DNA of 64,000 nt from a virus (IMGVR_UViG_3300030098_005649); one strand, 5' to 3'; shown: positions 11,166-49,869, counted from the stretch's first letter. Made by a program: numbers and translations. The notes: generated from the letters alone by a model not told the origin.

Positions 11166-11175
11166 GATATTTATA
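11166..11175 (+). promoter_or_regulatory. Candidate late promoter motif GATATTTATA
   Basis: Intergenic, 27 nt before ATG 11203; recurs upstream of many structural genes. Confidence 0.5.
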
Positions 11176-11202: not shown

Positions 11203-11529
11203 ATGTCTGCATACAAACAATTTTTTACAAAAGCATTGAAGAAATTTGGAATAAAATCTATCAATGATATAACACCTGCAAAGAAAAAAGAATTCTTCAA
11301 TTACATTGATAAAAATTGGAAGGGTAAGAATGAGAATATGTATGAAAATATGTATGACGATTCACAAAAACAATTGGCTATTTCACGAATAGGAATGTTT
11401 GAGGATAATATCAAAAAATCCATAAAAAGTATAGCCATAAGAGATAAGAAAAAGGCTACAGAAATAATGAGACTTTATAAAAAACATATTATAGAATTTA
11501 AACTTGGTGTCCAAAAGGTACTCAATTAA
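11203..11529 (+). CDS. Small Lys-rich head-region protein (two modules)
   Basis: YKQFFTKALKKFG...KKEFFNYIDKNW module followed by KNE/MYE junction; upstream ATATTTATA and AGGG. Confidence 0.6.
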   Translation: MSAYKQFFTKALKKFGIKSINDITPAKKKEFFNYIDKNWKGKNENMYENMYDDSQKQLAISRIGMFEDNIKKSIKSIAIRDKKKATEIMRLYKKHIIEFKLGVQKVLN

Positions 11530-11582
11530 TGAAGAAAGGATACCACACTTGACCATATAGTGGGGAAGAACATCCAGTTGGG

Positions 11583-13601
11583 ATGAAACACGAGGAGCAA
11601 CTTATGACAATGTTTGGAAAAAGAGTAGAAGAAGGTATAGACTTATTTTTAGAAAAGAATGTACCTACTAACCCAAGTAAGTGGGCCTACTATAAAGCAC
11701 AAGCAAAAAAGAAATTCGATGTCTATCCATCTGCATATGCCAATGGATGGGCTGCAAAACAATATAAGGCTGCTGGTGGTGGATGGAGAAAAGAGAAAAA
11801 GAAGAAGAGAGAAGTGGTTGAAGATGTTGGTATTTACAAAGAAGTAAAAATAGGTCGTTATGATATTGGTATGGGTTCAAAGGGTAATGGTATTACATTA
11901 TGGAATCGTAATGTAGAGAAGGCTGGTGATTATAAAAGTATTGCTCATATTGCACCTAATGGAAAAGTTACTAACTATGAAAAAAGACAACCTAAAGAAG
12001 TTACTGCTTTTATTATGAAAATTGCTCAAGGTATGAAAGATAAACCAGTTGGTGAAGTAAATGAGAAAAAGGGAGATTTTCTTGACTCATTATTTCCAAA
12101 GGCAAAAGTACAGAAAGCAATCAAGATAGCAAAAAAGATGAGTGGTAATATGACAGGTGCTGTAAAGGCTATTGAGAAGTTTTTTCCTGGTATGTCTAAA
12201 CATACCCAAGTTCAAGATGCTCTTCGTGCTGCAAACGAGGGACTTGGTGATATGATTGGTAAGAAAGTTTCTAAACATAAAGGTTCTCGAAATATTCTAT
12301 CTAAAGCCGATGGTATAAAAAAAGTCAAATCAATGCAAAAAACTGGTGGGGCAAAAATTTATAAAGTTGATAAGGTAAAAACTCGATTGGGTGGAGAACT
12401 TATCACTATGTATAATTTATATACTAAAAATACAAATCATTCTTCTATGTCAAATCCATATGGATTGGAAATGATGAGAAGTGGTAATAAGGCTGCATAT
12501 CTTGTACCAGTAAAAGAATCTATAAACGAAGAAAAATATGTTGTTTATACTGGTAGTGGAGTAAAGGGTAGAAAGATTGTAAAACACGGATTGTCTCATA
12601 TGGGTGCAAAAAGACTATATAATAAGTTAGTCAAGACAGATAATTATGATGAAGTTGGATTTGATGACCATAAGAGTTGGAATCAAAACAATATACGAAA
12701 GGTAGATGAGTTGGTAACACCAATGGCTGTAAGTAATCCAACTGCATATAATGCATTATTGAATAAACAGATTGCAAAAGATACAAAAGTAAAAACTGCT
12801 TTGAATAATAAAGACCATAAAATGCACGGTAAGGCAAAAAGTTTAGTTCAAAGATTCTTAGATAAATTCAAAAAGAAGAATGGTAAGAAAGACGATAAAC
12901 CAAAAAAGATGTCTAAAACAGACCAAGATTTTTATAAGAAAATGTACAATATCGGTGAGGGTTTTGGTGGAGAACTAAAAGGAAAAGATAAAGAAAAATT
13001 TGAAAAGTGGAGAAAAGAAAATGCCACTCAGTTAGGTATGGAACTTTTAGAATCCTCAGAAAAATTTGCAAAAATGGCAAAAAAAAGAGGATTTGTAAAA
13101 AGAGGACAAAGTGAAAAAGAAAGAGAAAAGGGTATTGTAGATTATCTAAAAAAACATGCTAATAAAGATATCAAAGGTGCTTATCCAGACCCTTATGTGA
13201 GAAGATTACAGATACCAGGTCACGGTCCCGCACAAGATTGGTGGATGGATACTTGGTCAGTAGTCAAAAAGGTATTGGGTGAATCAATATTAGTAACTGA
13301 AGGAGTACCTGAAACTATACATCAACAACTTGGTGGTAAAAGATTTAATATGATGACTGGTGTAAAACAATTAGTCAATATAAAAAATAAAGGTCTCGGT
13401 ATAAAAATCGGTGGTGGTGCAAAAAAGAAAATAAACTATGTCGAAATAATGTATGACCGAGGTAAAGATTTATACGATGTGACATTTCACAAAATATTCA
13501 AAGGTAATTTGAAAAAAGTATCTGGACCATTCAAAGGTTTGGATGTAGAACAAATGATAAGAGTCTTTGAAAAAGAAACTGGTTTTTACACCAAATTTTA
13601 G
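11583..13601 (+). CDS. Lys-rich multi-module protein (putative internal head polyprotein); true start uncertain (11529, 11583 or 11604)
   Basis: 672-aa ORF of short unrelated modules, e.g. PTNPSKWAYYKAQAKKKFDVYPSAYANGW...GGGW, MSGNMTGAVKAIEK, TIHQQLGGKRFNMMTG...FEKETGFYT. Confidence 0.65.
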   Translation: MKHEEQLMTMFGKRVEEGIDLFLEKNVPTNPSKWAYYKAQAKKKFDVYPSAYANGWAAKQYKAAGGGWRKEKKKKREVVEDVGIYKEVKIGRYDIGMGSKGNGITLWNRNVEKAGDYKSIAHIAPNGKVTNYEKRQPKEVTAFIMKIAQGMKDKPVGEVNEKKGDFLDSLFPKAKVQKAIKIAKKMSGNMTGAVKAIEKFFPGMSKHTQVQDALRAANEGLGDMIGKKVSKHKGSRNILSKADGIKKVKSMQKTGGAKIYKVDKVKTRLGGELITMYNLYTKNTNHSSMSNPYGLEMMRSGNKAAYLVPVKESINEEKYVVYTGSGVKGRKIVKHGLSHMGAKRLYNKLVKTDNYDEVGFDDHKSWNQNNIRKVDELVTPMAVSNPTAYNALLNKQIAKDTKVKTALNNKDHKMHGKAKSLVQRFLDKFKKKNGKKDDKPKKMSKTDQDFYKKMYNIGEGFGGELKGKDKEKFEKWRKENATQLGMELLESSEKFAKMAKKRGFVKRGQSEKEREKGIVDYLKKHANKDIKGAYPDPYVRRLQIPGHGPAQDWWMDTWSVVKKVLGESILVTEGVPETIHQQLGGKRFNMMTGVKQLVNIKNKGLGIKIGGGAKKKINYVEIMYDRGKDLYDVTFHKIFKGNLKKVSGPFKGLDVEQMIRVFEKETGFYTKF

Positions 13602-13611
13602 GAGAATAAAA

Positions 13612-13821
13612 ATGCAATTTTTTAGAGAAATGCTTTCAAGTGATGCAAAAATTTCAAGTAAGAGGTTTGTTGGTTTTATGGCTTTTGCTATGTTGATAGC
13701 AAGTTGGGGAGCTGATACCTTTTCTTCATTTGAAGTGAAGGATAAAATTTTAGAATGTTTTATGTACATATCAGTAGTTGGACTTGGAGTTACTGCAGCT
13801 GAAAAATTTGGGAAAAAATAA
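13612..13821 (+). CDS. Putative holin (two transmembrane segments)
   Basis: AGGAG SD at 13600; 69 aa with SSKRFVGFMAFAMLIASW and FMYISVVGLGVTAAEKFGKK hydrophobic helices and a basic C-terminus. Confidence 0.5.
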   Translation: MQFFREMLSSDAKISSKRFVGFMAFAMLIASWGADTFSSFEVKDKILECFMYISVVGLGVTAAEKFGKK

Positions 13822-14850
13822 ATGAAACTTCGTACTATAGCAATATCACTTATCAAGAATCTGAACAAAGAATTTAAAAAGTTCGATCCTGATAAAGTTG
13901 CAGACTTCAATAAGGTCGTAAAGTTTTTGGCAAAAAAGATGCCTACTTTGGCAAAAAGAGCACCAATTGCAATAGGACATATTGCAGAAGAGTATAGACT
14001 TTACAGAGCACAAAGACCATATCCATTTGTTGATGTTGATACCATAGAATCTGTTATGAAGAGATTGAAAAAATTAGGTATGGGTAAGATGAAAGAGATG
14101 TTGAATTATCCTAATTATCTAAAGAATGTAGGTAATGTACCTGGTATACAAAAAGATGGTGAACATCGATATTATAATCCTAAAACATCAAAGAAGAAGA
14201 AAAAGGTAAGTGAAAGAGTTTGGACTCCAGCACAAGAAAAAGCTGTAAATAAACTTGATATTGAATTCAATAAGTTGAGGAATAAAAAGGGAATAGAACC
14301 TTATTCCTATGAGGCATCACAATTATGGACAAGTGCTGGATTTAGAAAAAAGATGAGAAAGATATTTGGTAAGGACGAATCTATATCAGAATTGAAAGAC
14401 CACGAAGGTTCTATGGCAAAATCTCAACTTGAAAGAAGTATGAAGTATGCTAGAATGATTTATAAAATAATTGATAATGTTGGTAAGGGTGGAGAAGTAG
14501 GTTTTCCAGCGTGGGTTCAATCTAAATTGACTAAGGCTGAAGATTACCTACAGAGTGTTTATAATTACTTAGATGGTAAGGATGGGTTGGATGATAAGTT
14601 CCAAGAAAACTTGGGAGAGTCATTACCAAATAAAGTTAGTGATAAATTCAAAAAAATGAAACCAGCTCCATCGAGCGAAAAAAAAAGACTAAAACAATTC
14701 TATAAACATCACAAGTCACATTCGGGACCTCATATAACTGGACAAGGTGCAGAACCTGATACATATGATTGGGATGACCAAGATGGTAAAGAGGGTGGTG
14801 TTCAGAACAAAGAAAAAGACAAGAAAAAACGAGGCTATGAACCAGTATGA
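13822..14850 (+). CDS. Lys-rich multi-module protein
   Basis: 342 aa; modules separated by MKE, VSE, ISE, LGE; includes DHEGSMAKSQL...PAWVQSKLTKAEDYL module. Confidence 0.6.
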   Translation: MKLRTIAISLIKNLNKEFKKFDPDKVADFNKVVKFLAKKMPTLAKRAPIAIGHIAEEYRLYRAQRPYPFVDVDTIESVMKRLKKLGMGKMKEMLNYPNYLKNVGNVPGIQKDGEHRYYNPKTSKKKKKVSERVWTPAQEKAVNKLDIEFNKLRNKKGIEPYSYEASQLWTSAGFRKKMRKIFGKDESISELKDHEGSMAKSQLERSMKYARMIYKIIDNVGKGGEVGFPAWVQSKLTKAEDYLQSVYNYLDGKDGLDDKFQENLGESLPNKVSDKFKKMKPAPSSEKKRLKQFYKHHKSHSGPHITGQGAEPDTYDWDDQDGKEGGVQNKEKDKKKRGYEPV

Positions 14851-17800
14851 AATTAGGAGAATGGTTGGCCAATAATTTACTTCTCGGACAATCATCTGAG
14901 ATTACCGAGGATGTAAAGTTACCTATCAATGTTGGTGATACGGTAATGATGGGTCGTTTCAAGAATAAAAAAGTTATAGTAAAATCCATTGATTATAATG
15001 AAAAAGGAGACCTACTAATCAATGGGAGACCTGCATTAAAATTTAGAATGGTAAAATCCGTAAAGGAAAGTAAAGAACAAATTGGTAACATACTTAGACT
15101 TCTACAGATGTATGGACAATCTAAAAATGCAGCTTCAAAAATGATAAAGAAAAATTATAAAAAGGTTGCACAAAAGTTCAGAGGAGATTCAGATAGAGAT
15201 TTGGCAATGGCACTCATAGGATATGATGTTATAGGTGAATCATATTGTGGGGAATGTCTATGTGAAAAATGTTGGAAAGGATATAAAATACATCCTACTC
15301 GTAAGACAAAAATATTGTTTGGTAAGAGATATCCTAATTGTATAAAGAATGAGGCAGATAGAAAACCTCGTAAGAAAGGACAACATAGAAACTCACCAAA
15401 TCATTCAGATTTATATACAGACGAGAATCCAAAAGGTACAATACACGGATTGAAATTTGCAACCGTAAAGGACGCAGAAAAATCTGTAAATAAAATAAAG
15501 AGTAGTGGTAAATCTCACGCTCATAAAATACAAGCAGCAGTTGCTATGGAACAAAGAGCAAAAGAGATGGGAAAGAAAAGTGCTGCAGGAGTTTATAGAA
15601 AATACATCAATCAGATGAAAGAGAAGACCAAAAAGAAAAACGAAATTGGAATACCATCACCAAGTCGTAAGATGGTAAAGAAGATGAAAAAGAAAGGACA
15701 TACTTCTGTTCCATATGGTAGTGGTTACAAAAAAATGAATGAAAAAAAGCTTGACTTATATAGTGAAAATGATGTATATTTAGGTATGGAAAATGAGAAA
15801 AACGCCTTAAATGAAAATAAAATAAAAAAAGTAATTGGTGTGTATGGTGGTAGGTTTCAACCATTTGGCCCACATCATAAAAAAACATTTGAGTGGTTAC
15901 AATCAAAAACAGATGATGCATATATAACTACAAGTGATATAAAGAAACCACCAAGACATCCATTGAATTACAAAGAAAAAATTAGACATATGTCTAAAAT
16001 GGGAATATCACCCAATAAAGTCATAAAAGAAAAATCACCATTGGTTGCAAATAATCTTTTATCTAAATTTGACCCAAAAACAACTGCAGTAGTTTATATA
16101 TTTGGTGAAAAAGATGCAGGTAGATTAGCAGGTGGTCGAAAGAAAGATGGTTCATTAGGATATTTTCAGGATTATAAAAAACATAGAGGTAATCTAAAGG
16201 GATTTGAAGAACACGGATATTTCTTGACTGCACCACATATTAGTATGAAAATTGCTGGTATGGAAATATCAGGTACTACGATGAGAAAAGTATTGGGTTC
16301 TTCCAAGATAAAAGATTCGGATAGACCAAAAGTTTTCAAAAAATTATTTGGATACTATGATGAGGGTATTTATAAGATGCTAACTAACAAGTTCAAAGGA
16401 CTTGTAGACCATATAATACCAGATAAAAAAATAGAAGAATTTTTGATGAAAGAAGGTTCTGTAAGTGTTCCAAATTTATCAGACGAGGGACTATATGACT
16501 TTTTCAAATCATACGATGATTACGAAAGAGTTTCACCAAAACACGCCAATATATTGGCAGGATTTGAGGTAATTGGACATTTGATTGATAAAAAAGATGT
16601 TATGGAAAACGACTTTACATATGAATATGAAAGAACACCAACGGTAACATTCGGAAGAACTGTAAATCAAAATACTAAGAACTTTGCAAGTTCTGATAAT
16701 CCATTTCCAAAACACATTTCATATATGAAAGAATTAGCAAATACTATGGGAATGAAAATTCTAAAATTTATTGGAACTGAAAACAAAGGTGTTGGTGGTC
16801 AAAAAGTAGATGGTGTGATAGAATCTGAGATTGATTTTTATTTGGGTTTGGATGAACAACTTGATATTTATACTAAGGAGATAGTTGAAGTATTATCTAA
16901 CGAAGATTATAAAGGAAAAGAGTTATTACTTATGGGTGGTGCATACGGACATATGGCACATCCCTTTGACGATAAAAATTTGACATTTGGGGATATAAAA
17001 AATATTATTGATTTAGGGTTACAAGGTAAACTTGATGCTGAAGCTGGAGTACAAGAAAAATTAGATGGACAAAATCTAATGATAAGTTGGAAAGGTAAGA
17101 ATCTCGTAGTTGCTAGAAATAAAGGAGATATAAAACGAGGTGGTGCATCAGTTGGTTCTATAAAGGCAAAATTTAAAGGTAGAGGTAATATTGAAAAAGC
17201 TTTCTCATATGCACTTGATGACTTGAGTAAGTCCATCGGTAAATTAACTGATGCACAAAAGAAAAAGATATTTGATGATGGTAACAATTATATGAATTTA
17301 GAAGTTATGTATCCAGCATCAGCTAATGTGATAAATTATGACGCACCAATAATTGTCTTTCACGGAGCACTAAAGTACAGAGGTGGAGAGGCAATTGGTG
17401 AAGTACCAGGTAGTGGTAGAATATTGGCAGGAATGATAAAACAAATTGGTGCTAATATCGGTAAGAAGTTTAGTATTAGAGGGCCAAATGTATTGAAGAT
17501 GACTAAATCACAAGATTACTCAAAACAAAGAGCTTACTTTTTTGCTAAATTAGACAGATTGAGAAATCAATATAAACTATCTGATAGTGATAAATTGTCA
17601 GTTTATCATCAACACTATTGGTTAGAGTGGATACTCAATGGTGCAAACCAAACCGATTATCCAAATCCACCTGATAATGTTGTATATGCACTAATGAAGA
17701 GATGGGCATTTTTTGACAAGAGTTACACAGTACCGATGATAAAAAGAGACCTAAAAGAACATCCTAAATTTTTAGATTGGGTGTTGAGTACCGATAAACA

Positions 17801-18149
17801 AGACCACTCAAAAATGGTAAAGAAAAATATGAAACCATTTGAAACTTTATTGTTTGAAGTTGGTGCAGAAATACTAAAGAACTTGAGTGGATTCTTGGCA
17901 GTAAATCCAAAAGCTTCAGTACAGAATGTCAAGAAACAAGTTGAAAAGGCAATCAATGTAGTGAAAAAAGGTGGAGACCTAAAGAAATTAAATACACTAA
18001 AAGCACAAATGGAGAAACTAAATGCCATTGGTGGTTTGGGTGCAGTAGTTCCAACAGAGGGACTTGTTTTTAAATATAACGGAAATACATACAAACTAAC
18101 AGGTGCATTTGCCCCAATCAATCAGATTACGGGACTAATGTACTTTTAA
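14847..18149 (+). CDS. Multidomain protein: small basic modules + cytidylyltransferase-like nucleotidyltransferase + RNA-ligase-like domain
   Basis: VYGGRFQPFGPHH and ISGTTMR (HxGH/KMSKS-like Rossmann fold); C-terminal GGAYGHMAHPFD...EKLDG...EGLVFKY...YKLTG (ligase motifs I, IV, V). Confidence 0.7.
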   Translation: MKLGEWLANNLLLGQSSEITEDVKLPINVGDTVMMGRFKNKKVIVKSIDYNEKGDLLINGRPALKFRMVKSVKESKEQIGNILRLLQMYGQSKNAASKMIKKNYKKVAQKFRGDSDRDLAMALIGYDVIGESYCGECLCEKCWKGYKIHPTRKTKILFGKRYPNCIKNEADRKPRKKGQHRNSPNHSDLYTDENPKGTIHGLKFATVKDAEKSVNKIKSSGKSHAHKIQAAVAMEQRAKEMGKKSAAGVYRKYINQMKEKTKKKNEIGIPSPSRKMVKKMKKKGHTSVPYGSGYKKMNEKKLDLYSENDVYLGMENEKNALNENKIKKVIGVYGGRFQPFGPHHKKTFEWLQSKTDDAYITTSDIKKPPRHPLNYKEKIRHMSKMGISPNKVIKEKSPLVANNLLSKFDPKTTAVVYIFGEKDAGRLAGGRKKDGSLGYFQDYKKHRGNLKGFEEHGYFLTAPHISMKIAGMEISGTTMRKVLGSSKIKDSDRPKVFKKLFGYYDEGIYKMLTNKFKGLVDHIIPDKKIEEFLMKEGSVSVPNLSDEGLYDFFKSYDDYERVSPKHANILAGFEVIGHLIDKKDVMENDFTYEYERTPTVTFGRTVNQNTKNFASSDNPFPKHISYMKELANTMGMKILKFIGTENKGVGGQKVDGVIESEIDFYLGLDEQLDIYTKEIVEVLSNEDYKGKELLLMGGAYGHMAHPFDDKNLTFGDIKNIIDLGLQGKLDAEAGVQEKLDGQNLMISWKGKNLVVARNKGDIKRGGASVGSIKAKFKGRGNIEKAFSYALDDLSKSIGKLTDAQKKKIFDDGNNYMNLEVMYPASANVINYDAPIIVFHGALKYRGGEAIGEVPGSGRILAGMIKQIGANIGKKFSIRGPNVLKMTKSQDYSKQRAYFFAKLDRLRNQYKLSDSDKLSVYHQHYWLEWILNGANQTDYPNPPDNVVYALMKRWAFFDKSYTVPMIKRDLKEHPKFLDWVLSTDKQDHSKMVKKNMKPFETLLFEVGAEILKNLSGFLAVNPKASVQNVKKQVEKAINVVKKGGDLKKLNTLKAQMEKLNAIGGLGAVVPTEGLVFKYNGNTYKLTGAFAPINQITGLMYF

Positions 18150-18162
18150 TGAAGAGGTTATT

Positions 18163-18735
18163 ATGAGTAAAAATCCAATGATGGATGCTTCTCTCAAGGA
18201 GAGAGCCAAGCAAATGAAAGCTATGAAATCTATTCTTGCAGGAGAAGAGGTTGAAAAGACTATACAAGTTGGTTATGAGGGAAAGAAACAACCAAAAGGT
18301 GATATCGAAAGTCCACTAACAGACATAATGAAAGAGGTAAGAATGCCAATGTTTTGTCCTAAGTGTGATGTTGTGATGAAAAAAAGACTTGATAATAAAA
18401 TGTGGAGATTATATGGTCATTGTTTTGATTGTCAGATAGACTTTGAACACAAACTTCGTGTAGAAGGAAAATATGACGAATGGGAAAAAACAAAGGTACT
18501 TGAGAATAAAAAGGCATTTCTAAAAGACCAAATACAATCTGTAGAGGAGTGGATAACTCAATCTCCATTAAAATTTTTAAACCAAACTGCCGTAGATACT
18601 CGTGTTATTGATGAAGAAAAGTGGGAAGATAATATAGATAGACCAAAAGTAGGTGGTGAGGCAATAGAAGAGTTTCAAAAAGAGTTGGAAAAGATTGAAA
18701 AAGAACTCAAAGATATTTATAATCAAGGAGAATAA
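18163..18735 (+). CDS. Hypothetical protein with two CxxC motifs
   Basis: CPKC...HCFDC; GAGG SD. Confidence 0.6.
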   Translation: MSKNPMMDASLKERAKQMKAMKSILAGEEVEKTIQVGYEGKKQPKGDIESPLTDIMKEVRMPMFCPKCDVVMKKRLDNKMWRLYGHCFDCQIDFEHKLRVEGKYDEWEKTKVLENKKAFLKDQIQSVEEWITQSPLKFLNQTAVDTRVIDEEKWEDNIDRPKVGGEAIEEFQKELEKIEKELKDIYNQGE

Positions 18736-18736
18736 A

Positions 18737-19042: not shown

Positions 19043-19059
19043 ACTATATATTTATATTT

Positions 19060-19476
19060 ATGAAAAATTACTTTAGTATAAAAATAATCAAATACTTTCT
19101 AATATCTTTTTTTGTCCTAACAATTGTTGATGGTCAAGAAATAAAGAAAGATGGAAAGACACCAAAGACATTTACCTATGATGAAGCATTAGAAATGTTG
19201 AAAGCTCGTGATGCACAATGGGAATCTAAATTATCAAAAGCAGATTCATTGATAGAATCTCAAAAAGTTACCATTAGTGATTGTGAAACTTTGGTGGTAA
19301 AGTTAGAAGAACAAGCAAAATTAGATACATTAGTATTACTTGCTCAGAAAAAACAAATTGATTTATTGAAATCTCGTGATGAGGCAAATGAAAAATTGGT
19401 AAAATTAGTAGAACCAAAATGGTATGAAAATCAATACCTTTGGTTGGTTATAGGTTTTATATTCGGAAAGCTGTAA
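19060..19476 (+). CDS. Secreted coiled-coil protein with C-terminal TM helix (spanin-like)
   Basis: Signal-peptide-like N-terminus ending VDG-Q, coiled coil, C-terminal KWYENQYLWLVIGFIFGKL. Confidence 0.45.
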   Translation: MKNYFSIKIIKYFLISFFVLTIVDGQEIKKDGKTPKTFTYDEALEMLKARDAQWESKLSKADSLIESQKVTISDCETLVVKLEEQAKLDTLVLLAQKKQIDLLKSRDEANEKLVKLVEPKWYENQYLWLVIGFIFGKL

Positions 19477-21047
19477 TGAAACCCGAAAGACTAAAAAAAG
19501 TAATTCGGGAAGAATACCTAAAATCTGCAAAAAATCCTGTATACTTTTTAAAAAAATATTGTGTTATTCAACACCCATTGAGAGGTAAGATACCATTTCA
19601 TCTATATCCATTTCAAGAAAAATCAATTCAAGAGTTTGAACAAAATGATTATAATGTCGTTTTAAAAGCTCGTCAGTTGGGTATTTCAACTCTTGTTGCT
19701 GGATATTCATTATGGATGATGACATTTCATCAAGATAAAAATATATTGGTAATCGCTACTAAACAAGATACTGCAAAAAATCTTGTTACTAAAGTACGAG
19801 TGATGCATGCAAATCTACCATCTTGGTTGAAGAATATGTGTGTTGAGGATAATAAGTTATCATTACGATATAAAAATGGTTCACAAATAAAAGCAGTAGC
19901 AAGTAGTGGTGAGGCAGGTCGTTCAGAAGCTCTATCATTATTGATACTTGATGAGGCGGCATTCATAGATAAGATTGACACAATATGGGCTGCAGCACAA
20001 CAGACATTATCTACTGGTGGTCAATGTATTGCACTATCTACACCAAATGGTGTTGGAAATTGGTTTCATAGAACTTGGGCAGATGCAGAGGCTGGTACTA
20101 ATAAATTTAACTTTATCAAACTTCATTGGACTGTACATCCTGATAGAGATGAAAGTTGGAGAAGAGAACAAGATGGATTGTTAGGTCCTTCATTAGCTGC
20201 ACAAGAGTGTGATTGTGACTTTATTACTTCTGGTCAATCTGTGGTTGATGGTGTACTTTTAGAGGAATGTAGAAATACCACGGTTAGAGAACCTATGGAG
20301 AAAAGAGGAATTGATAGTAATATTTGGATATGGGAGCCTCCAAATTATACAAAAGACTATATAGTATGTGCTGATGTTAGTCGTGGTGATGGTCAAGACT
20401 ATAGTGCATTTCATATCATTGATGTGGAAAAGGTAGAACAAGTTGGTGAATATAAAGGAAAAGTGTCTCCCAAAGATTTTGGTAATATGTTGGTAAATAT
20501 ATCAACAGAGTACAACAATGCCTTACTAATTATTGAGAATGCATCAATTGGTTGGGCTGCAATACAACAATGTATAGACAGACAATACGATAATCTGTTT
20601 TATATGAGTAAAGATTTACAATATGTGGATACACTAAATACAATAAATAATAAAATAAATCGTTCAGAAAGACAAATGGTACCTGGTTTTTCTATGACTA
20701 TGAAGACAAGACCATTGGTAATTTCTAAATTAGAGGAATTTTTTAGAGAAAAGTCAGTAATTGTACATTCTAATCGATTAATTGATGAATTGTTTGTATT
20801 TATATATAATGGACAGAAAGCCGAAGCTATGGGTGGATATAATGATGATTTAGTAATGAGTTTGGCTATTGGACTTTGGGTTCGTGAAACTGCTCTTCGT
20901 CTAAGACAAGAGGGAATTGAATTGACAAAAAAATCACTTTCTTACTTTAGTTCTAATGAGGGAGTTTATTCTAACAATACAAATCAGAATGACTCTTGGA
21001 ATATGAATGTAGGAAAGGAAACAGAAAAATTAGATTGGCTACTTTGA
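19476..21047 (+). CDS. gp17: Terminase large subunit (T4 gp17-like)
   Basis: VLKARQLGIST Walker A region, LLILDEAAF Walker B, STPNG, ADVSRGDG.DYS and DDLVMSLA nuclease motifs; start overlaps previous stop (TAATG). Confidence 0.95.
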   Translation: MKPERLKKVIREEYLKSAKNPVYFLKKYCVIQHPLRGKIPFHLYPFQEKSIQEFEQNDYNVVLKARQLGISTLVAGYSLWMMTFHQDKNILVIATKQDTAKNLVTKVRVMHANLPSWLKNMCVEDNKLSLRYKNGSQIKAVASSGEAGRSEALSLLILDEAAFIDKIDTIWAAAQQTLSTGGQCIALSTPNGVGNWFHRTWADAEAGTNKFNFIKLHWTVHPDRDESWRREQDGLLGPSLAAQECDCDFITSGQSVVDGVLLEECRNTTVREPMEKRGIDSNIWIWEPPNYTKDYIVCADVSRGDGQDYSAFHIIDVEKVEQVGEYKGKVSPKDFGNMLVNISTEYNNALLIIENASIGWAAIQQCIDRQYDNLFYMSKDLQYVDTLNTINNKINRSERQMVPGFSMTMKTRPLVISKLEEFFREKSVIVHSNRLIDELFVFIYNGQKAEAMGGYNDDLVMSLAIGLWVRETALRLRQEGIELTKKSLSYFSSNEGVYSNNTNQNDSWNMNVGKETEKLDWLL

Positions 21048-21056
21048 GGTTAAATT

Positions 21057-22919
21057 ATGGCAGATAAAAATATATACACAAGACTAAGAAGACTTTTTTC
21101 TTCCAATGTTATCGTAAGAAATGTTGGTGGTAGAAAGTTAAAGGTTACTGATACATCAAGAATTCAGACTAATCCAAAAGCAAGTCTTGTTGATAGATAT
21201 ACAAAATTATACACATCATATGCTGGTACGAGTGGATATAATTATTCATTATATCAGAAGACTCAAAGACTTGGGTTGTTCAGAGATTATGAGGCTATGG
21301 ATGTAGACCCAATTATTGCTTCTGCACTTGACATATATGCAGATGAATCAACAATGAAATCAGAGTATGGTGATGTACTAAATATTACTTCTGATAATAA
21401 TGATTTGAAAGATATTTTACATAACCTATTTTATGACATACTGAATATAGAATTCAATTTATGGCCTTGGGTTCGTAATATGGTGAAGTATGGTGACTTC
21501 TTTTTGAAATTGGAAATCAATGAAAAGTATGGTATAACAAATGTTATCCCAATGTCTGCTTACGATATCACTCGTGTTGAGGGTGATGATCCAGAAAATC
21601 CTGAGTATGTAAAATTTATCTTGGAATCAACAGACCAACGACATCAAAACAATGCTGCAAAAGAAGAATTTGAAAATTATGAAGTAGCACATTTTAGAAT
21701 GTTATCAGATTCAAATTATCTACCATATGGAAAGTCTATGATTGAACAGGCAAGACAGATATGGAAACAAGTTACATTGATGGAAGATGCTATGTTGATA
21801 CATCGTATTATGAGAGCACCAGAAAAGAGAATATTCAAAATTGATATAGGAAATATTCCACCTGCAGAAGTTGATAACTATATGCAAAGAATCATCAACA
21901 AGATGAAAAAGGCACCTGTTATTGATGAGGCAACTGGTGAGTATAATCTAAAATATAATATGCAAAACCTAACAGAAGATTTTTATCTACCAGTTCGTGG
22001 TGGAGATAGTGGTACACAATTAGAAAATCTACCTGGTCTTGAATTCAATGCAATAGATGATATAGAATATTTGAAAAATAAACTATTAGCTGCATTGAGA
22101 GTACCAAAAGCATATCTTGGATATGAGGAAGAGGTTGGTAGTAAGGCAACATTAGCTGCCGAAGATGTTAGATTTGCTCGTACTATCGAGAGAATACAGA
22201 GAATTGTAGTTAGTGAATTGACTAAGATTGCAATTGTTCATTTATATGCACAAGGTTATCAAGATAAAGACCTTGTAAATTTTGAGTTGGGTCTAACTAA
22301 TCCATCTACAATATATGAACAAGAAAAACTTGAATTATGGAATACTAAATTAGGATTGGCAGAAACTGCAAAAAGAGATAATTTGGTATCTTCACTTTGG
22401 ATATATAAAAATGTTTTTGGATTTACAGATGCAGAAATATCTAAAATGAATGACGAGATGATATTTGATAAATTCAATGCCTTTAGACAATCTCAGATTG
22501 AAAATGAAGGTAATGACCCAGCAAAAAGTGGTCAATCACAAGGAACTCCCGCAGATTTAGCAATGGGAAGAACAGGTCGTGAGTTAGAATTTGATGCTCG
22601 TGATTTGGATAAAGATTTAAAACCAGAAGAAGTAGGTGGAAGACCTGAAGAGGGCCCTAAGTATGGTAAGGATGGAAGTGCTCGTGGTAGAGACCCACTT
22701 GGTAAAAGAGATTATGAAAAGAATTCTACTGGTAAGTATCAAAGAGGAAGAGATGGAGAGTTCAGAGGTGGTAGTCCACTAGCTCTTGCACACTTTGATG
22801 CAATGGAAAAGAATATGAAAAAGTACAAAGGAAAGTCAATATCAGTATTGAATGAGGAGTTGAACGACACTCAAACAGAGTATGATAAAGATATTGATGA
22901 AATGAAGATAGATAAGTAG
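21057..22919 (+). CDS. gp20: Portal protein (T4 gp20-like)
   Basis: YEAMD.DPIIASALDIYADE; LMEDAMLIHRIMRAPEKRIFKIDIGN; EDFYLPVRGG; KLLAALRVPK. Confidence 0.95.
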   Translation: MADKNIYTRLRRLFSSNVIVRNVGGRKLKVTDTSRIQTNPKASLVDRYTKLYTSYAGTSGYNYSLYQKTQRLGLFRDYEAMDVDPIIASALDIYADESTMKSEYGDVLNITSDNNDLKDILHNLFYDILNIEFNLWPWVRNMVKYGDFFLKLEINEKYGITNVIPMSAYDITRVEGDDPENPEYVKFILESTDQRHQNNAAKEEFENYEVAHFRMLSDSNYLPYGKSMIEQARQIWKQVTLMEDAMLIHRIMRAPEKRIFKIDIGNIPPAEVDNYMQRIINKMKKAPVIDEATGEYNLKYNMQNLTEDFYLPVRGGDSGTQLENLPGLEFNAIDDIEYLKNKLLAALRVPKAYLGYEEEVGSKATLAAEDVRFARTIERIQRIVVSELTKIAIVHLYAQGYQDKDLVNFELGLTNPSTIYEQEKLELWNTKLGLAETAKRDNLVSSLWIYKNVFGFTDAEISKMNDEMIFDKFNAFRQSQIENEGNDPAKSGQSQGTPADLAMGRTGRELEFDARDLDKDLKPEEVGGRPEEGPKYGKDGSARGRDPLGKRDYEKNSTGKYQRGRDGEFRGGSPLALAHFDAMEKNMKKYKGKSISVLNEELNDTQTEYDKDIDEMKIDK

Positions 22920-22991
22920 ATTATTTGTAGTTTTTTATACTTTCATATATTTATTATCAACCAAGAAGTTAGTGATTAGAACGAGGACAAA

Positions 22992-23864
22992 ATGTCAAAA
23001 ATAAAACATAATAAAATCAAAAATACAGGAATATTATTCGAGTTACTAACAAGACAAATTACTGCAGATATCCTTGAGGGTAAGGATGACAATAAGTCTG
23101 CATCTGTTTCTCTTGTTAAAGAATTTTTTTCCAAGAACACATCTATGGGGAAGGAATTAGACTTGATAAAATTACTTTCTGAAACAAAGTATAAGTCAGT
23201 TACTAAGGCAGAACAATTGATTGAATTGACATTGACTGCTCGTAAGAAAATTTCCAATTCAAAATTGAGAAATGAAAAGTATAATCTTATCAAAAAGATA
23301 AGAGAAAACTACAATCCTACAGATTTTTTCAAAACCACTATACCAAATTATAAACTATATGCTTCTATTTATAAATTATTTGAGACAAGAAGTGAGGATA
23401 GTGCTACTATAAATGATATCATTAGTTCAAAATCTGTAATAATAGAAAATATAACATCTAAAAAAGTCACTAAGAAATTTGAAAGTGAAAAACTCAAAGA
23501 ATTCAAAGAACAGAATGAGGATGTAAGACTACTAACCTATAAAGTATTAGTTGATAACTTCAATAAGAAATATAATGGTTTAGATGAAAGTCAAAGAAAA
23601 TTACTCAAAATGTACATCAACAATGTTGCAAATACAGGTACATTGAAAGAGTTCATATCCAAAGAAGTTGTCAGTATCAAAAAATATATAAAGGACAACA
23701 TATCTAAAGTAGACGACAAGATTGTAAAAATAAAACTCTCTGAGGCCTCCAAATTATTAGAAAAACTAAATAGTGGTGGTGTCGTAAAGGATAGTCAAGT
23801 TGTTTCTTTGATGAGATGGTATCAATTAGTCAAAGAGATAAAAGATGTCGTTTCCTCTAAGTAA
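22992..23864 (+). CDS. Conserved head-module hypothetical protein
   Basis: 290-aa ORF with GAGGA SD between portal and protease; helical composition. Confidence 0.65.
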   Translation: MSKIKHNKIKNTGILFELLTRQITADILEGKDDNKSASVSLVKEFFSKNTSMGKELDLIKLLSETKYKSVTKAEQLIELTLTARKKISNSKLRNEKYNLIKKIRENYNPTDFFKTTIPNYKLYASIYKLFETRSEDSATINDIISSKSVIIENITSKKVTKKFESEKLKEFKEQNEDVRLLTYKVLVDNFNKKYNGLDESQRKLLKMYINNVANTGTLKEFISKEVVSIKKYIKDNISKVDDKIVKIKLSEASKLLEKLNSGGVVKDSQVVSLMRWYQLVKEIKDVVSSK

Positions 23865-24282
23865 ATTAAAAGAAATAATAAGAGAACTTATAAGACAAGA
23901 GTTAGCCGAAGCATCTACTACTGGTGCTCTTGATGGTGGAGAAGGACCACCAAGAACTCCATACGCTTTTACTAAAAAGGGTGATGAGAAAAAGAAGAAA
24001 AAGAAAATGGTAAAAGTTTCTGGCGGTTATGAGTTAGCAGAAAATCGATATTATAAATATAAAAACGATCCTGATAGAACTCCTAAAGTAAAAATTGGAC
24101 AATCAGTAAAGGAGATAAGAGACGCCATAAAGGAACTCGATAGAGTTATTGCTATGAATGTTCGTTTGAAAAAAGAGATGAATGTTGATTCTCGACAATA
24201 TTGGAAACGAACACATAAACAATTACAAACTGTTTCTGAAAAACTTATCACAATGGCTCAAAAGCTTGGACAACTATACTGA
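23845..24282 (+). CDS. Head-module hypothetical protein
   Basis: Leader KLKEIIRELIRQELAE|ASTTG; second junction YELAE. Confidence 0.6.
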   Translation: MSFPLSKLKEIIRELIRQELAEASTTGALDGGEGPPRTPYAFTKKGDEKKKKKKMVKVSGGYELAENRYYKYKNDPDRTPKVKIGQSVKEIRDAIKELDRVIAMNVRLKKEMNVDSRQYWKRTHKQLQTVSEKLITMAQKLGQLY

Positions 24283-24288
24283 TGAACA

Positions 24289-24603
24289 ATGAGACTAAAA
24301 AGATTACTATTTCCCCATACTAACGAATTTCAAAATGTAAATATAATTTCTGATTATATGCAAAATGACTCTGCATTCTACAGAGCAAGACTATCCCCAT
24401 TTTATAAAACACATACGGTTATTTACAAAGAGGGAAAGTACAGACGAAATAGAGCTATAAAGAATATGGAAGGAATCGTTAAAGATGCATATAGAAAGTA
24501 TATGAGAAAATTTGATGACACATTTGTATTGATGCAAAATGAGGTAAAACAAATTGCCACTATATTTATAGATGAGTTAGAAAAAAACTTTTCAGAGGAA
24601 TAA
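24289..24603 (+). CDS. Hypothetical protein
   Basis: 104-aa ORF filling the gap before the protease. Confidence 0.5.
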   Translation: MRLKRLLFPHTNEFQNVNIISDYMQNDSAFYRARLSPFYKTHTVIYKEGKYRRNRAIKNMEGIVKDAYRKYMRKFDDTFVLMQNEVKQIATIFIDELEKNFSEE

Positions 24604-24607
24604 CGCT

Positions 24608-25222
24608 ATGAGTAAAAATTTATTATTAGAATACAGGCCATTTGAGGCCAAAACAATATCGGAGGGTGTTCACGACAATAAACCCTTTACCGTTACTGGT
24701 GTCTTACAAAGAGCAGACTCCAAAAACCAAAATGGTCGTGTCTATCCAAAAGACATATTGATGAGAGAGGCCAAAAAATATTCGGATACATTTATAAAAG
24801 AAAAAAGAGCGTTAGGTGAATTAGACCATCCCGATTCCTCTGTGGTTAATTTACAAAATGTTTCACATAATGTTACTGGTATGAAGTGGGACGGAGATGA
24901 TTTAGTTGGTACGGTAGAAGTTTTGACAACACCAAGTGGTAATATTCTAAAAGAGTTATTCAAGGCTGGTATCAAGTTGGGAATTAGTTCTCGTGGACTT
25001 GGTTCGGTAGAGACAATAAAATTTGAAGGTACTGAGGCAAATAAAGTTGGGGATGATTTTGAACTAATTGCGTTTGACTTTGTATCCAATCCATCTACTC
25101 AAGGTGCATTTTTACATCCTGTAAATGAGTCAATCGATAAGTCAAGAAGACAACTTGGTGAGTCTTGTGATAAATGGTGTAAAGTAGAGTATACATTGAG
25201 AGACATTATCGGAGGAAAATAA
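24608..25222 (+). CDS. gp21: Prohead maturation protease (T4 gp21-like)
   Basis: NQNGRVYP, GELDHP (His), GISSRGLGS (Ser), DFVSNPST motifs. Confidence 0.95.
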   Translation: MSKNLLLEYRPFEAKTISEGVHDNKPFTVTGVLQRADSKNQNGRVYPKDILMREAKKYSDTFIKEKRALGELDHPDSSVVNLQNVSHNVTGMKWDGDDLVGTVEVLTTPSGNILKELFKAGIKLGISSRGLGSVETIKFEGTEANKVGDDFELIAFDFVSNPSTQGAFLHPVNESIDKSRRQLGESCDKWCKVEYTLRDIIGGK

Positions 25223-26790
25223 TGGCTAATTTTGAGGTAGATATATACAAAGATATTAGTACAAGAGGAAGAAGACCATTCCCTATTCCTATGAATGGAA
25301 CTAAACTAAAAGTTGTAATACCTAAAATAACAAAATATGTCTCAAAGAAAAACAGAGTTGGTGGAGATATAGGGTATGTAGAAGTATACTTGAATCTTGG
25401 TAGAGGTGATTCTCAGTTTCTTGGAAGTATGCAAAAGAAGAAAAAATGGAAATGGGAACCTGGTGATGCTCTAAAAAAGAATAAAGATAATTTAGCAAAT
25501 AGAGTAGAAGAACACTACGAACCTATCAAAGAATCTAAAGAAAAAATAAAAGAAAATTTACAATCGTTTTACCGATATATGCAAGACTTTTATGGTCAAA
25601 AAGGTATATATCCTGATAAAAGGGGAAGACCTCTCAAAGTAAATGATATAAATGTTGCACTATCGGTATATCTTAAAAAGTATTCCGCTGACACCTTTAC
25701 TGGTGATAGTTTAGATAGAGAAAGAGTTCGTGATATTCTAATCAAGATGAAAAAAATTGACCCTCAATATAAAAAGAATGAGGGAGTCAGATTATCAATG
25801 AAAGAACATTTACTTACCGAAAGAGATTTCTTGGTATATGATGTACAACCAAAAAGAGTTGAGGCATTTCTAAAGAAATATAAAAAAGTTGAACCATCTA
25901 TGAAACCATATTTGAAAGGTAACTTGATGAAGGCTTATGTCAAGTGGTTAGATTGGAAAGGTAAGAATGAAGATAAACTTGGTGGTAGACCAGAAAAGGT
26001 AGATTCAGATACCTTTGGTTCAAAAACATTTTATAAATTTGATGGATTACCAGGTTGGGCAAATGTATTTCAGTATTTGTATAAGAAAAAAAATGAAATA
26101 ATTGAAAACAGAATTGATGGAGTTGAGGTAAAGGATGAACACATAAAAGGATTCATTGATAAGGCACTAAAACTTTCAGGAATCAAAGTTGTAAAATATC
26201 AACCTATGAAGAAATCATTTATCCAAAGTCAGATTTGGGGTGGATTCTATACTGTAAAATCTGCTAACGGAACTGATGTATTACCATTTTATGTAAATTC
26301 TAAAGGTATGATTGACTTGGGTGTGTCTTCAGACCAATTCATAGTAGGAAAGTATGGTGCAATTCTAAAGGTAATAAAGAATCTAAAAAGTTTCAAGAAA
26401 ACAGATTTAGACCAAAAATATTACGAAGAATCTTTTGGTAGAGGACCCGCTCCAACTCCAAAGGGATATGATGCGGCTATGAAGAAAATGTTGAAGTATA
26501 TGCAAAAGAAAGCCGAAGACTACTATAAAAGAGAATTACCTAAATTATATGATATGGGTGCATGGGAATATCCAGATTTATTGAGACCTGGTATAAAATT
26601 TGATAAGATTGTAAATGTCAGAAACAAAAGAGCTGGTGCAGTTTCATTTTTTGTAGATAGAGCAACAGGTGATATTTACAAACCTGCAAGTTTTAGAGCA
26701 CCCGCTAAAGGTGTAAGAGGAAACATATTCAAATCAGACACTTGGAAGAAGTATGATGTCCACGGTGGTTGGTTGTATAGATATAGGTAA
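25222..26790 (+). CDS. Lys-rich multi-module protein
   Basis: 522 aa; modules such as YMQDFYGQKGIYP...GDSLDRERVRDIL and FVDRATGDIYKPASFRAPAKGVRGNI separated by IKE, KNE, LTE, IIE, YEE. Confidence 0.6.
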   Translation: MANFEVDIYKDISTRGRRPFPIPMNGTKLKVVIPKITKYVSKKNRVGGDIGYVEVYLNLGRGDSQFLGSMQKKKKWKWEPGDALKKNKDNLANRVEEHYEPIKESKEKIKENLQSFYRYMQDFYGQKGIYPDKRGRPLKVNDINVALSVYLKKYSADTFTGDSLDRERVRDILIKMKKIDPQYKKNEGVRLSMKEHLLTERDFLVYDVQPKRVEAFLKKYKKVEPSMKPYLKGNLMKAYVKWLDWKGKNEDKLGGRPEKVDSDTFGSKTFYKFDGLPGWANVFQYLYKKKNEIIENRIDGVEVKDEHIKGFIDKALKLSGIKVVKYQPMKKSFIQSQIWGGFYTVKSANGTDVLPFYVNSKGMIDLGVSSDQFIVGKYGAILKVIKNLKSFKKTDLDQKYYEESFGRGPAPTPKGYDAAMKKMLKYMQKKAEDYYKRELPKLYDMGAWEYPDLLRPGIKFDKIVNVRNKRAGAVSFFVDRATGDIYKPASFRAPAKGVRGNIFKSDTWKKYDVHGGWLYRYR

Positions 26791-26794
26791 GATT

Positions 26795-27091
26795 ATGATA
26801 AAACTAAAAAAATTATTAACAGAAAGTGAATACCTAAAAAGAGAGTTTGGTGAATCATTACCTACATTGGATAGTGTTATGAAATTACACCAAGAGGCAT
26901 CCGAAAGTGGAGTTGATTTGGCCAAAAGAGTTTTGAAGAATCAAACGATGGAAAAGGGTATGGATATGCAAACTGCAAATCTAATCGTAACGATAGATAA
27001 GGCATACGATAAAAATCCAAGACTACAAAAGATGTTTCGGTCAATGCCACCAAAGAAAATGATAAGGATTGCTCAACAATTTCGTAAGTAA
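26795..27091 (+). CDS. Small protein with MIKLKKLLTE leader
   Basis: ATG at 26795, 4 nt after previous stop; leader shared with neighbours. Confidence 0.6.
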   Translation: MIKLKKLLTESEYLKREFGESLPTLDSVMKLHQEASESGVDLAKRVLKNQTMEKGMDMQTANLIVTIDKAYDKNPRLQKMFRSMPPKKMIRIAQQFRK

Positions 27092-27095
27092 TAAT

Positions 27096-27608
27096 ATGAT
27101 AAAACTAAAAACATTATTATCTGAAGGCCCAATACCATATCAGAATTATGCAACAGATTCTAAAGATGGTGCGTCAAAGGGTGCAATAAAAGATTTTGAA
27201 AAAGTATTCAAGAAAGTATCTTTAGAACAAGGTAGACACCCAAAAAATTCTTGGTGGGCAGGTGGTCAAGGTCAAGGTATAAAGGCAGGAACTTCAAGAA
27301 TAGATAAAAAAGAATCGAGATATCAAGTATCTGAACCTGCAGGATTTGATAAACCAATAAAATTTGAAAAAATTAAGACTATAGAATCTTCCATACAAGT
27401 AGGAAGTGATGTAGTACCAGGTAATGAAGAATATGCATTATATACACTTAAAGACTTTTTGAAAGATGTAAAAAAGATGGGTGGATATAAATTGAAAAAG
27501 ACTTCTGTAAGAACTCATTTTACACTACACAAGGGTGGTAATACATATGCATTATATTTTACACCATCAATGGCTGGAACATATGTAAGTTTGAAATCGA
27601 GGTTATAA
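27096..27608 (+). CDS. Protein with MIKLKTLLSE leader
   Basis: ATG at 27096; first 30 nt nearly identical to those of the 26795 gene. Confidence 0.6.
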   Translation: MIKLKTLLSEGPIPYQNYATDSKDGASKGAIKDFEKVFKKVSLEQGRHPKNSWWAGGQGQGIKAGTSRIDKKESRYQVSEPAGFDKPIKFEKIKTIESSIQVGSDVVPGNEEYALYTLKDFLKDVKKMGGYKLKKTSVRTHFTLHKGGNTYALYFTPSMAGTYVSLKSRL

Positions 27609-28498
27609 TGAGTAAGCAATATTTAGATGCTGAATTTGTTGGTGATGTAGATTTTAGACCTGTTAGAAAAGCTTGGGTGTACAAAAAAGATAAACCTAAA
27701 AATGATTATTTTGGGGTTGTTATAGCAAAAAGTAAAGCAAGATATGAAATAGAGTTGGGTAGACATAGTAGTGATGATAAGGCAAAAAAGTATTTCTTAT
27801 CATATTTGAAAAGAAAATTTACACCAATGGAATCAATATCAAAAGAAGATTTGAGAGTATTATTAGAAGAATATGGAATTGATGGATTAGCAAAACTTAT
27901 AAATGAGTACTCAGGAACACTAACAGGATATGGATTGAACACAGGTGATGCTTGGCCTGATGGTATTTTTACAAAGTATGGTGAGGAAAGAATTGTAGGA
28001 CCTGGTGGGATGCCACGAGGTATGGTTCAAGTAGATGTACCAAAGGCTGATGTGGTCTATGGTGGAGATGGTGGAAGAAAGACCATAACACAATCTAAAA
28101 TGAATCCTGAGAATAAAAAGAAAATGGTAGTGATAGACCCACACGAGTTGAGGGATGATACACCACCATTGTCACCTAAACAAAGAATTTATGGAAGAAG
28201 AGCTTTTGGTAAGAATCCAGAGTACACTATTCCTTTAGAAACACACGATATGGTACACACTGCAGATGTTTTGAAAAAACCAACCACACCACCTGAGGGA
28301 AGTGTGAGTGGTGGAATACCTGCAACACCCGAACCAGGATCGAAAAAAGCTGGTAGTTCAAGTGGATATAGACAATTTCAAAAGGGTGGAAAGAGTGTGA
28401 TGCACGATGTAGATAAATTGTATGTACATAAGAAACTAAAAGAATCTACTTACAAAAATGTGATGTCACAATTACTTGGTAAAAAAACTAAAAAGTAG
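27608..28498 (+). CDS. Hypothetical multi-module protein
   Basis: 296-aa ORF coupled by TAATG; junctions LLEE, LINE, LKE. Confidence 0.55.
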   Translation: MSKQYLDAEFVGDVDFRPVRKAWVYKKDKPKNDYFGVVIAKSKARYEIELGRHSSDDKAKKYFLSYLKRKFTPMESISKEDLRVLLEEYGIDGLAKLINEYSGTLTGYGLNTGDAWPDGIFTKYGEERIVGPGGMPRGMVQVDVPKADVVYGGDGGRKTITQSKMNPENKKKMVVIDPHELRDDTPPLSPKQRIYGRRAFGKNPEYTIPLETHDMVHTADVLKKPTTPPEGSVSGGIPATPEPGSKKAGSSSGYRQFQKGGKSVMHDVDKLYVHKKLKESTYKNVMSQLLGKKTKK

Positions 28499-49839: not shown

Positions 49840-49869
49840 AATGATATTTATTAGAAATTGGAAACATAA

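Follow-up and report, generated by a model that had tools for sequence, protein, structure and literature searches.

What are the extremely lysine-rich proteins that a large T4-like phage of the ocean encodes among its packaging and head genes? The DNA in question is a viral stretch of 64,000 nucleotides catalogued as IMGVR_UViG_3300030098_005649 (the whole of which we call the window); it is part of such a phage, with all genes on the plus strand and 30–36% GC in this part. Six of its open reading frames (ORFs), here named P0001 through P0006 in order of position (Table 1), had been flagged in an earlier note, made from the sequence alone, as putative capsid-cargo polyproteins, that is, as chains of short, mutually unrelated, very basic modules whose boundaries end in Glu. 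Our analysis supports the architectural part of this proposal, in that these proteins are strings of shufflable cassettes whose joints resemble the cleavage rule of the T4 prohead protease gp21. That the strings are cut inside the prohead and that the pieces travel with the DNA we consider probable, though far from certain.

The six ORFs are indeed very basic, with 13.2–20.4% Lys and net charges of +13 to +66 (the structural genes have at most 8% Lys), and they are interleaved, as the earlier note had it, with the genes for the large terminase subunit (TerL, at 19440), the portal (21057) and the gp21-like S77 protease (24608), ahead of the major capsid protein (MCP, 30514). The description as chains of short unrelated modules holds in so far as the proteins are composite, but P0006 consists of two modules and residues 324–1100 of P0004 are two enzyme-like domains. 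About 15 of the 18 joints that had been listed lie at homology boundaries, whereas LCE↓KCW (the arrow marks the presumed cut) falls inside a Cys-rich module and MKE↓GSV and IGE↓GFG are weak; KNE187↓G of P0005 was not on that list, and there 18 of 18 ends of high-scoring segment pairs (HSPs) fall exactly on the Glu, which makes it the strongest joint of that protein.

The composite nature of the strings is clearest in P0002. In an exhaustive HMMER search its pieces match 3012 representative clusters (956 of them at E ≤ 1e-10), in proteins of 62–946 amino acids (aa) and at any position in them, and its stretches 8–72, 86–163, 157–225, 232–318, 310–376, 372–460/520, 476–574 and 577–671 are matched singly or a few at a time. 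PHROG families of 50–127 residues each cover one stretch of P0002 or P0005 (in P0002, phrog_27331 corresponds to 38–76 and phrog_9437 to 577–672), and tblastn finds single modules at 60–76% identity in cyanophage and pelagiphage genomes. P0002 HSPs end exactly at E161 (seven), E316 (four) and E493 (six), those of P0004 at E266 (six) and E299 (eight), with 45 HSP starts around E169; GKE692 is a further supported joint of P0004. Most of the 91 homologues of P0005 cover just 15–58% of the query, and their HSP starts gather at 106–109. Raw counts of BLAST HSP ends, like 3-mer enrichment, proved too noisy for more than weak support, as the Lys-rich linkers are subject to drift and the counts are confounded by redundancy among homologues.

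Another measure comes from anchoring on the modules themselves. Conserved cores at the N-termini of modules, from 17 families, served as anchors, and the 14 families with three or more contexts were used. Glu stands at one fixed offset before the module core in 143 of 190 distinct upstream 14-mer contexts, where a null that also chose the best of nine offsets gave a mean of 28 and a maximum of 37 over 2000 simulations. Counting the Glu as P1, the residue before the presumed cut, P3 is I, L, V, M or F in 76% of joints (background 25%), P2 is Asn in 32% (background 5%) and the following residue, P1′, is Ala, Gly or Ser in 53% (background 20%); Lys occupies P3 in about 20%. An unsupervised breakpoint scan, noisier than the anchor analysis, found Glu as the last shared residue in 17% of cases against 5.4% (p 5e-4) and Glu within −1 to +3 in 31 of 63 against 24% (p 2e-5); the junction p-values are optimistic, because the contexts share ancestry and the anchors were picked after the joints had been seen. 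At the DNA level 149 distinct junction contexts use GAA 101 times and GAG 48 times for the Glu, AAT 34 and AAC 18 times for the Asn, both near background, with several codons at P3, and no fixed DNA linker that could serve as a recombination signal was found among them. Junction codons vary at silent sites, and therefore the constraint acts on the protein and not on a fixed DNA linker.

The T4 protease gp21 cleaves after L/I-x-E (PMC9026906), and the sequences of the joints, with their Glu, hydrophobic P3 and small P1′, support a match to this rule. In T4 the capsid-targeting sequence (CTS) is the first ten residues of internal protein III (IPIII), in which residues 4 and 7 target the protein, while its processing requires residues 8 and 10 (PMC9026906). 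The internal joints of the window proteins retain P3 and P1, the two positions that T4 genetics links to processing.

Relatives of the window in IMG/VR (86–99% identity) keep the same gene order and differ by whole modules. In one of them (L004) a 58-aa module is inserted exactly between ...ESVNE and EKYVV of P0002, the INE↓EKY joint, and the insert itself ends in ...SLVE↓; in L004 and L005 about 62 aa are inserted directly after KNE44 of P0001. The contig L006 is especially rearranged: a 686-aa P0002-like protein carries P0002 modules in another order together with P0005 module 304–400, P0001 module 4–45 is found within a 346-aa CTS-headed protein, and P0003 module 184–262 is a standalone ORF of 93 aa with RLNE↓ just before it. 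Insertions or replacements between flanks of at least 75% identity start after ...KKKNE, ...KKVNE, ...KLITE, ...KLLIE, ...GLSE and ...HKTE. More widely, P0003 modules 86–156, 125–190 and 261–342 recur within proteins of 144–1701 aa, modules 17–70 and 168–299 of P0004 occur in many combinations in more than 600 IMG/VR stretches and in ORFs of 51–1701 aa, and the core of P0006 is elsewhere a standalone protein of 200–226 aa with leaders ending LIKE↓, IINE↓ or MLKLKDLIKE↓. These comparisons support the earlier suggestion that the six ORFs encode shufflable cassette strings, with pieces that appear as standalone genes, are re-ordered or have moved between ORFs. A recoding artefact, in which a sense codon acting as a stop would have made separate genes look fused, was considered and dropped, because independent contigs contain the same fused ORFs and neither Met nor another start follows the joints.

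Leaders of the T4 type are present in the same region. Three ORFs with the CTS pattern (at 26795, 27096 and 28529) all lie between the protease and the scaffold; for the first two the longest-ORF starts, 26753 and 27069, are probably wrong and the leaders probably begin at 26795 and 27096. The first of these leaders, MIKLKKLLTE, is hydrophobic at residues 4, 7 and 8 and has its Glu at residue 10, like T4 MKTYQEFIAE; in the T4 genome IPII and IPIII start with MKTYQEFIAE↓A and IPI with MKTFKEF...ITE↓A. Among the related loci 57 distinct ORFs start with such leaders (MIKLKxLLxE, MIKLKDLLNE, MKNFKEFITE, MKTFKEFISE), and they include polyproteins of 779–1324 aa as well as standalone copies of P0002 and P0004 modules. 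MKNFKEFITE, for example, heads the first P0002 module where it stands alone, MIKLINLLNE↓APRKPRKKGQ a 779-aa polyprotein, and MNKLTKWLVE↓SILTE↓APRVPRKKGQ polyproteins of 1286–1293 aa. The start of P0004, MKLGEWLANN...SSEITE↓D, is degenerate, but resembles the MNKLTKWLVE of the 1286–1324-aa relatives and the 19-residue leader of IPI. In Microcystis phage Mel-JY01, the nearest named relative, whose gene order is syntenic, a 388-aa ORF between S21 and scaffold (L001:22429-23595) has the CTS-like start MYEYVEYILE↓K; by eye the R / S-T-T / E-x-E spacing in its C-terminal half is like that of an Alt-type ADP-ribosyltransferase, while Pfam gave no match.

A cultured relative of these strings offers a view of the virion. 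The cyanophage matches of P0002 and P0004 modules lie in the cyanophage core gene family T4-GC119, between g16 and g17 (the terminase genes), and the N-terminal part of P0004 is about 75% identical to it. The members SSM2_109 of S-SM2 (708 aa) and SBM3_00185 of S-BM3 (337 aa) are strings with joints such as KKMNE↓AKDHE, and SSM2_108, which adjoins SSM2_109, starts with MKTLKQFLKE. The family is like the window strings in its position upstream of TerL, in its architecture and in modules shared with P0002 and P0004 (PRKKGQ at about 75% and SAYANGW at about 70% identity), and differs in its other module sets and orders, its DUF6321 and DUF192 not being seen in the window. Phage S-CREM2 has two ORFs between the small terminase subunit gene and TerL: gp136, which is basic and starts MQTFSMFFSE↓D, and gp137, which has two modules in common with SSM2_109 (E 3e-11 and 8e-11) and a DUF6321 (3.5e-10). 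Mass spectrometry of CsCl-purified S-CREM2 virions yielded eight peptides of gp136 and four of gp137, and gp154, a cytidylyltransferase, is also in that proteome (PMC10665884 Table 3); gp154 starts with MKNFSSFLTE↓A. Leader-bearing proteins and a T4-GC119 family member are therefore virion-associated in one cultured marine T4-like phage. We found no paper that treats T4-GC119 as a polyprotein.

The strings hold enzymes as well as small basic modules. The nucleotidyltransferase-like module of P0004 scores below the Pfam cutoff in the window, and the same module type in a relative (L032) matches PF01467 at 1.4e-10; the Mel-JY01 homologue is annotated as cytidylyltransferase-like. In the RNA-ligase-like domain that follows, 17 homologues all keep the EKLDGQN motif unchanged, and in the relatives the domain starts directly after ...LIIE↓. 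The top 20 PDB structures found by Foldseek with the model of residues 693–1100 are nearly all RNA ligases, as weak matches (E 0.014–0.6, template-modelling score about 0.2), and a PDB sequence search with the enzyme part gave no match. P0004-like giants of relatives (L019:601-3024, L020:6813-11915 and L032:3142-7548) carry a CCA-adding enzyme with an HD domain (PF01743, 1.3e-30) and also an AAA_33/zeta-toxin-like P-loop kinase. Judged from these domain assignments, an RNA-repair flavour of the string enzymes (kinase, CCA-adding enzyme, nucleotidyltransferase and ligase) is plausible. Most of the modules have no known function: DUF5872-like and DUF7717, the latter forming the C-terminus of P0005 (PF24835, 1.8e-12), and in relatives DUF3008, DUF6321 and DUF192. 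The most widespread module (P0004 168–268, the PRKKGQ module) is modelled as a three-helix bundle behind an invariant, disordered basic segment, and a fold search of AlphaFold Database clusters matched only uncharacterised viral proteins. No NCBIfam match was found in the six ORFs, and neither these nor seven polyproteins of relatives gave any Pfam, PHROG or NCBIfam match to a metallopeptidase (MPTase)/zincin peptidase, MuF, ADP-ribosyltransferase or DdrB-ParB domain.

The course of events that we think probable is as follows. The polyproteins would be made late, alongside the head genes, and would enter the prohead core by a T4-type capsid-targeting leader (as in P0004, the neighbours at 26795, 27096 and 28529, and many polyproteins of relatives) or possibly by charge attraction to the very acidic scaffold. 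There the S77 protease would cut after Glu at joints of the form [I/L/V/M/F, sometimes K]-x-E, releasing some 25–30 small basic proteins together with the nucleotidyltransferase-like and RNA-ligase-like enzymes, and the released pieces would stay with the DNA and enter the host along with it. If every module has its own cut site, the strings could gain, lose or relocate modules in frame and still function, and this would explain the extensive shuffling.

Several observations weigh against this course of events. Lys at P3 in about 20% of joints (KKKNE↓, for example) is outside the T4 L/I rule, and Glu is missing in about 25% of contexts; the expectation that module homologues would be found standalone and in other orders was borne out on both counts, but not the expectation that they would always be Glu-flanked. 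The earlier note had also named an x-x-E frequency no higher than background as a ground for refutation, and formally that is the case, because [ILVFM]-x-E overall is only 0.87–1.7 times expectation (0.87–1.37 times in five of the six ORFs and 1.7 times in the 108-aa ORF at 11203, with 3 sites against 1.7 expected). The Glu enrichment is specific to the junctions and absent from the overall density. No CTS-like N-terminus was seen on P0001, P0002, P0003, P0005 or P0006, P0004 alone of the six being leader-like. As to the virion, gp137 was identified from only four peptides with 4% coverage (PMC10665884), and virion preparations may hold contaminants; moreover, the link from the window to S-CREM2 has two steps, through the T4-GC119 proteins of S-SM2 and S-BM3, and gp137 shares other modules of SSM2_109.

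With the background site density, the absence of an N-terminal CTS from most flagged ORFs and Lys at some P3 positions in mind, one might hold that these are multidomain proteins of an ordinary kind that stay uncut, acting like strung beads in the cytoplasm or virion, with the Glu joints as leader fossils from fused CTS genes or as favoured linker residues. Packaging without processing occurs with the N4 virion RNA polymerase and with several polyvalent proteins (PMC5512222). We regard uncleaved strings as unlikely: Glu, a hydrophobic P3 and a small P1′ are fixed before the same module behind many unrelated neighbours, inserted modules bring their own terminal ...LVE↓, and since the silent sites are free, there appears to be continuing selection on the P3 and P1 residues that gp21-type processing needs.

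Cleavage could be granted and the fate of the pieces still be different. They might be scaffold or core filler, or DNA counter-ions that act in assembly or condensation, or they might be expelled like the fragments of T4 gp22, rather than being injected as effectors. Extremely basic proteins do lie next to a very acidic scaffold, the T4 core proteins are cut to many fragments that mostly leave the head (PMC9026906), and no module has a recognisable effector fold by Pfam, PHROG or the fold search with the PRKKGQ module. Enzymes make little sense as filler, yet the strings carry the nucleotidyltransferase-like and RNA-ligase-like domains, with the AAA_33 kinase and the CCA-adding enzyme plus HD domain in relatives, and the rapid shuffling and high diversity recall the T4 IP locus with its arms-race pattern; we give such a fate a small chance. 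A joint that serves chiefly as a signal for recombination at the DNA level, its amino-acid motif being incidental, would suit module exchange exactly at the joints but is very improbable, given that the 149 contexts use GAA/GAG, AAT/AAC and several I/V/L codons near background ratios and that the P3 and P2 residues vary too.

Table 1. Positions of the lysine-rich ORFs, their domains and neighbouring features in the window (↓, presumed cut)
Feature	Position	Strand	Remarks
Candidate late-promoter motif, ATATTTAT-type	11168..11175	+	35 nt 5′ of the first putative polyprotein gene (11203)
P0001, 108-aa basic two-module protein	11203..11529	+	20% Lys; joint KNE44↓N (11332-11334)
P0002, 672-aa string, ~9 modules	11583..13601	+	joints FLE24, VVE80, VNE161, ANE219, INE316/E317, VDE376, IGE459, SSE493, VTE573
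P0003, 342-aa string, ~4-5 modules	13822..14850	+	joints MKE92, VSE131, ISE190, FQE262/LGE266
P0004, whole ORF	14847..18149	+	
P0004 N-terminal part, small modules	14847..15815	+	21-aa leader ending ITE21↓; joints VKE74, KNE169, KNE266, MNE299, LNE323
P0004 aa 324-680, cytidylyltransferase-like nucleotidyltransferase module	15816..16886	+	PF01467 E 0.005, short of Pfam cutoff
P0004 aa 693-1100, RNA-ligase-like domain	16923..18146	+	KxDG motif, EKLDGQN; AlphaFold2 model, pLDDT (predicted local distance difference test) 76
TerL and T4-type portal	19440..22919	+	profile matches; TerL 19440, portal 21057
Two basic ORFs, 290 and 145 aa, between portal and protease	22992..24282	+	[ILVFM]-x-E 2.1x and 2.5x expectation
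gp21-like prohead serine protease (S77)	24608..25222	+	PF03420 4.5e-28; phrog_207 1.1e-52
P0005, 522-aa string	25222..26790	+	start codon overlaps protease stop; joints IKE111, KNE187, LTE200, KNE292/IIE295, GVE302, YEE402/403
98-aa ORF, CTS-like leader MIKLKKLLTE↓S	26795..27091	+	start revised from 26753
170-aa ORF, CTS-like leader MIKLKTLLSE↓G	27096..27608	+	start revised from 27069
P0006, N-terminal module, core 94-279 and variable tail	27608..28498	+	internal leader-like LINE100↓Y (27905-27907)
176-aa ORF, leader MPKLKDLLEE↓H	28529..29059	+	hydrophobic-x-E 2.4x excess
Very acidic scaffold-like protein	29393..30502	+	23% Glu, 13% Asp, net -87
gp23-type MCP	30514..32151	+	PF07068 1.2e-76

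The gene order from 10.6 to 32.2 kb begins with an endolysin (10669), which is followed by the first four Lys-rich ORFs, three small ORFs, TerL and portal; two basic ORFs (22992 and 23845) and the protease come next, then a further row of basic ORFs (25222, 26753, 27069, 27608 and 28529), S21, the acidic scaffold-like protein and MCP. [ILVFM]-x-E is 1.8–2.5 times the compositional expectation in the ORFs at 22992, 23845 and 28529, in the protease and in MCP. In the three ORFs this excess is as expected of prohead-core proteins that are chopped up (compare T4 gp22, gp67 and gp68), and those at 22992 and 23845, which stand where T4 has gp67/gp68, probably are such core proteins. LLE↓N and IDE↓S are candidate propeptide sites of MCP, judging by their sequence. 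The scaffold-like protein is syntenic with a 366-aa acidic protein ahead of MCP in Mel-JY01, and could be an electrostatic partner of the basic polyproteins; Asp and Glu make up 36% of it, and it contains a tandem VEDEVHDE repeat. A gene for ribosomal protein S21 (29068-29268, plus strand; TIGR00030, 1.7e-13) lies between a CTS-bearing ORF and the scaffold and has no CTS-like leader; Mel-JY01 carries S21 in the identical slot (L001:22183-22410). In the 220-nt gap between P0002 and P0003 there is a TTG-started frame of 84 codons (13567-13821, plus strand) that stops one base before the P0003 start codon.

The motif ATATTTAT(A/T), which may be a late promoter in this phage family, is found ahead of P0001 and also of the structural genes 19060, 22992, 28529, 32288, 36919, 49870 and 55733; its sites in the window are at 11168, 19049, the 22940s, 28500, the 32250s, 36870, the 49850s and the 55700s, 10–50 nt upstream of the genes. 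TATAAATA and its complement TATTTATA together occur 21 times against 6.8 expected. Metatranscriptome runs contain only 3–10% of the sampled words. Farther to the right (36919-52644) are three giant ORFs (2249, 2056 and 924 aa) with about 1–2% Lys and 39–46% GC, against about 32% in the head region, and overlapped by many long antisense ORFs; this looks like a compositional island and probably encodes fibre or surface proteins.

How do these strings compare with known head cargo? They are like T4 IPI, IPII, IPIII and Alt in being putative small basic cargo with, on some ORFs, a ten-residue leader and with a predicted cut after L/I-x-E, in the presence of a gp21-family protease and an acidic scaffold, and in their hypervariable repertoire. 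Each T4 IP gene encodes one module that is cut once, whereas here up to about nine modules share an ORF with a cut motif at each joint; unlike the T4 IPs, the window strings include enzymes, mostly lack an N-terminal leader and lie inside the packaging and head gene cluster. The inner-body proteins of phiKZ and SPN3US are cut behind a small P3 residue (S/A/G-x-E for phiKZ), unlike the hydrophobic P3 of the window joints. The phiKZ, 201phi2-1 and SPN3US proteins are otherwise comparable, as many head-internal proteins of these phages are cleaved behind the Glu of a three-residue motif and long propeptides are cut repeatedly (PMC10052503). In these phages an N-terminal propeptide is lost from one mature protein; the window strings would instead release many independent modules. 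The polyvalent proteins of phages and conjugative elements (Iyer et al. 2017, PMC5512222) also string together 2–15 unrelated domains in a late or virion context, with predicted delivery alongside the DNA and processing into units. They have an embedded zincin-like MPTase and signature domains, none of which were found in the window, where processing is predicted to occur in trans, with the prohead protease acting on short linear motifs. A full-text literature search of limited breadth found no paper that describes CTS leaders in marine T4-like phages, nor any that describes protease-jointed polyproteins there. To our knowledge, tailed phages are not known to encode virion cargo as polyproteins.

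We tentatively suggest, as a possibility to which we give less weight than to cleavage itself, that in the marine T4-like pool the prohead-protease site acts as a universal in-frame connector, so that any module with a short hydrophobic-x-Glu tail may be spliced in, loaded and released; a few genes, T4-GC119 among them, could then inject dozens of reshuffled basic proteins and an RNA-repair-like kit, a combinatorial first-strike library for counter-defence. If the strings are cut in the head, which cultured cyanophages and the Microcystis phage Mel-JY01 would allow one to test directly, a large and abundant class of hypothetical marine phage proteins, including a core cyanophage gene, would have a common explanation. 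DUF5872, DUF6321, DUF3008, DUF7717 and numerous orphan modules would then be proteins that are injected, phage head cargo could be predicted from genomes by a sequence rule built on the junction motif and leader, and nature's own design rules for packing several proteins into T4-type capsids could be read from the strings.

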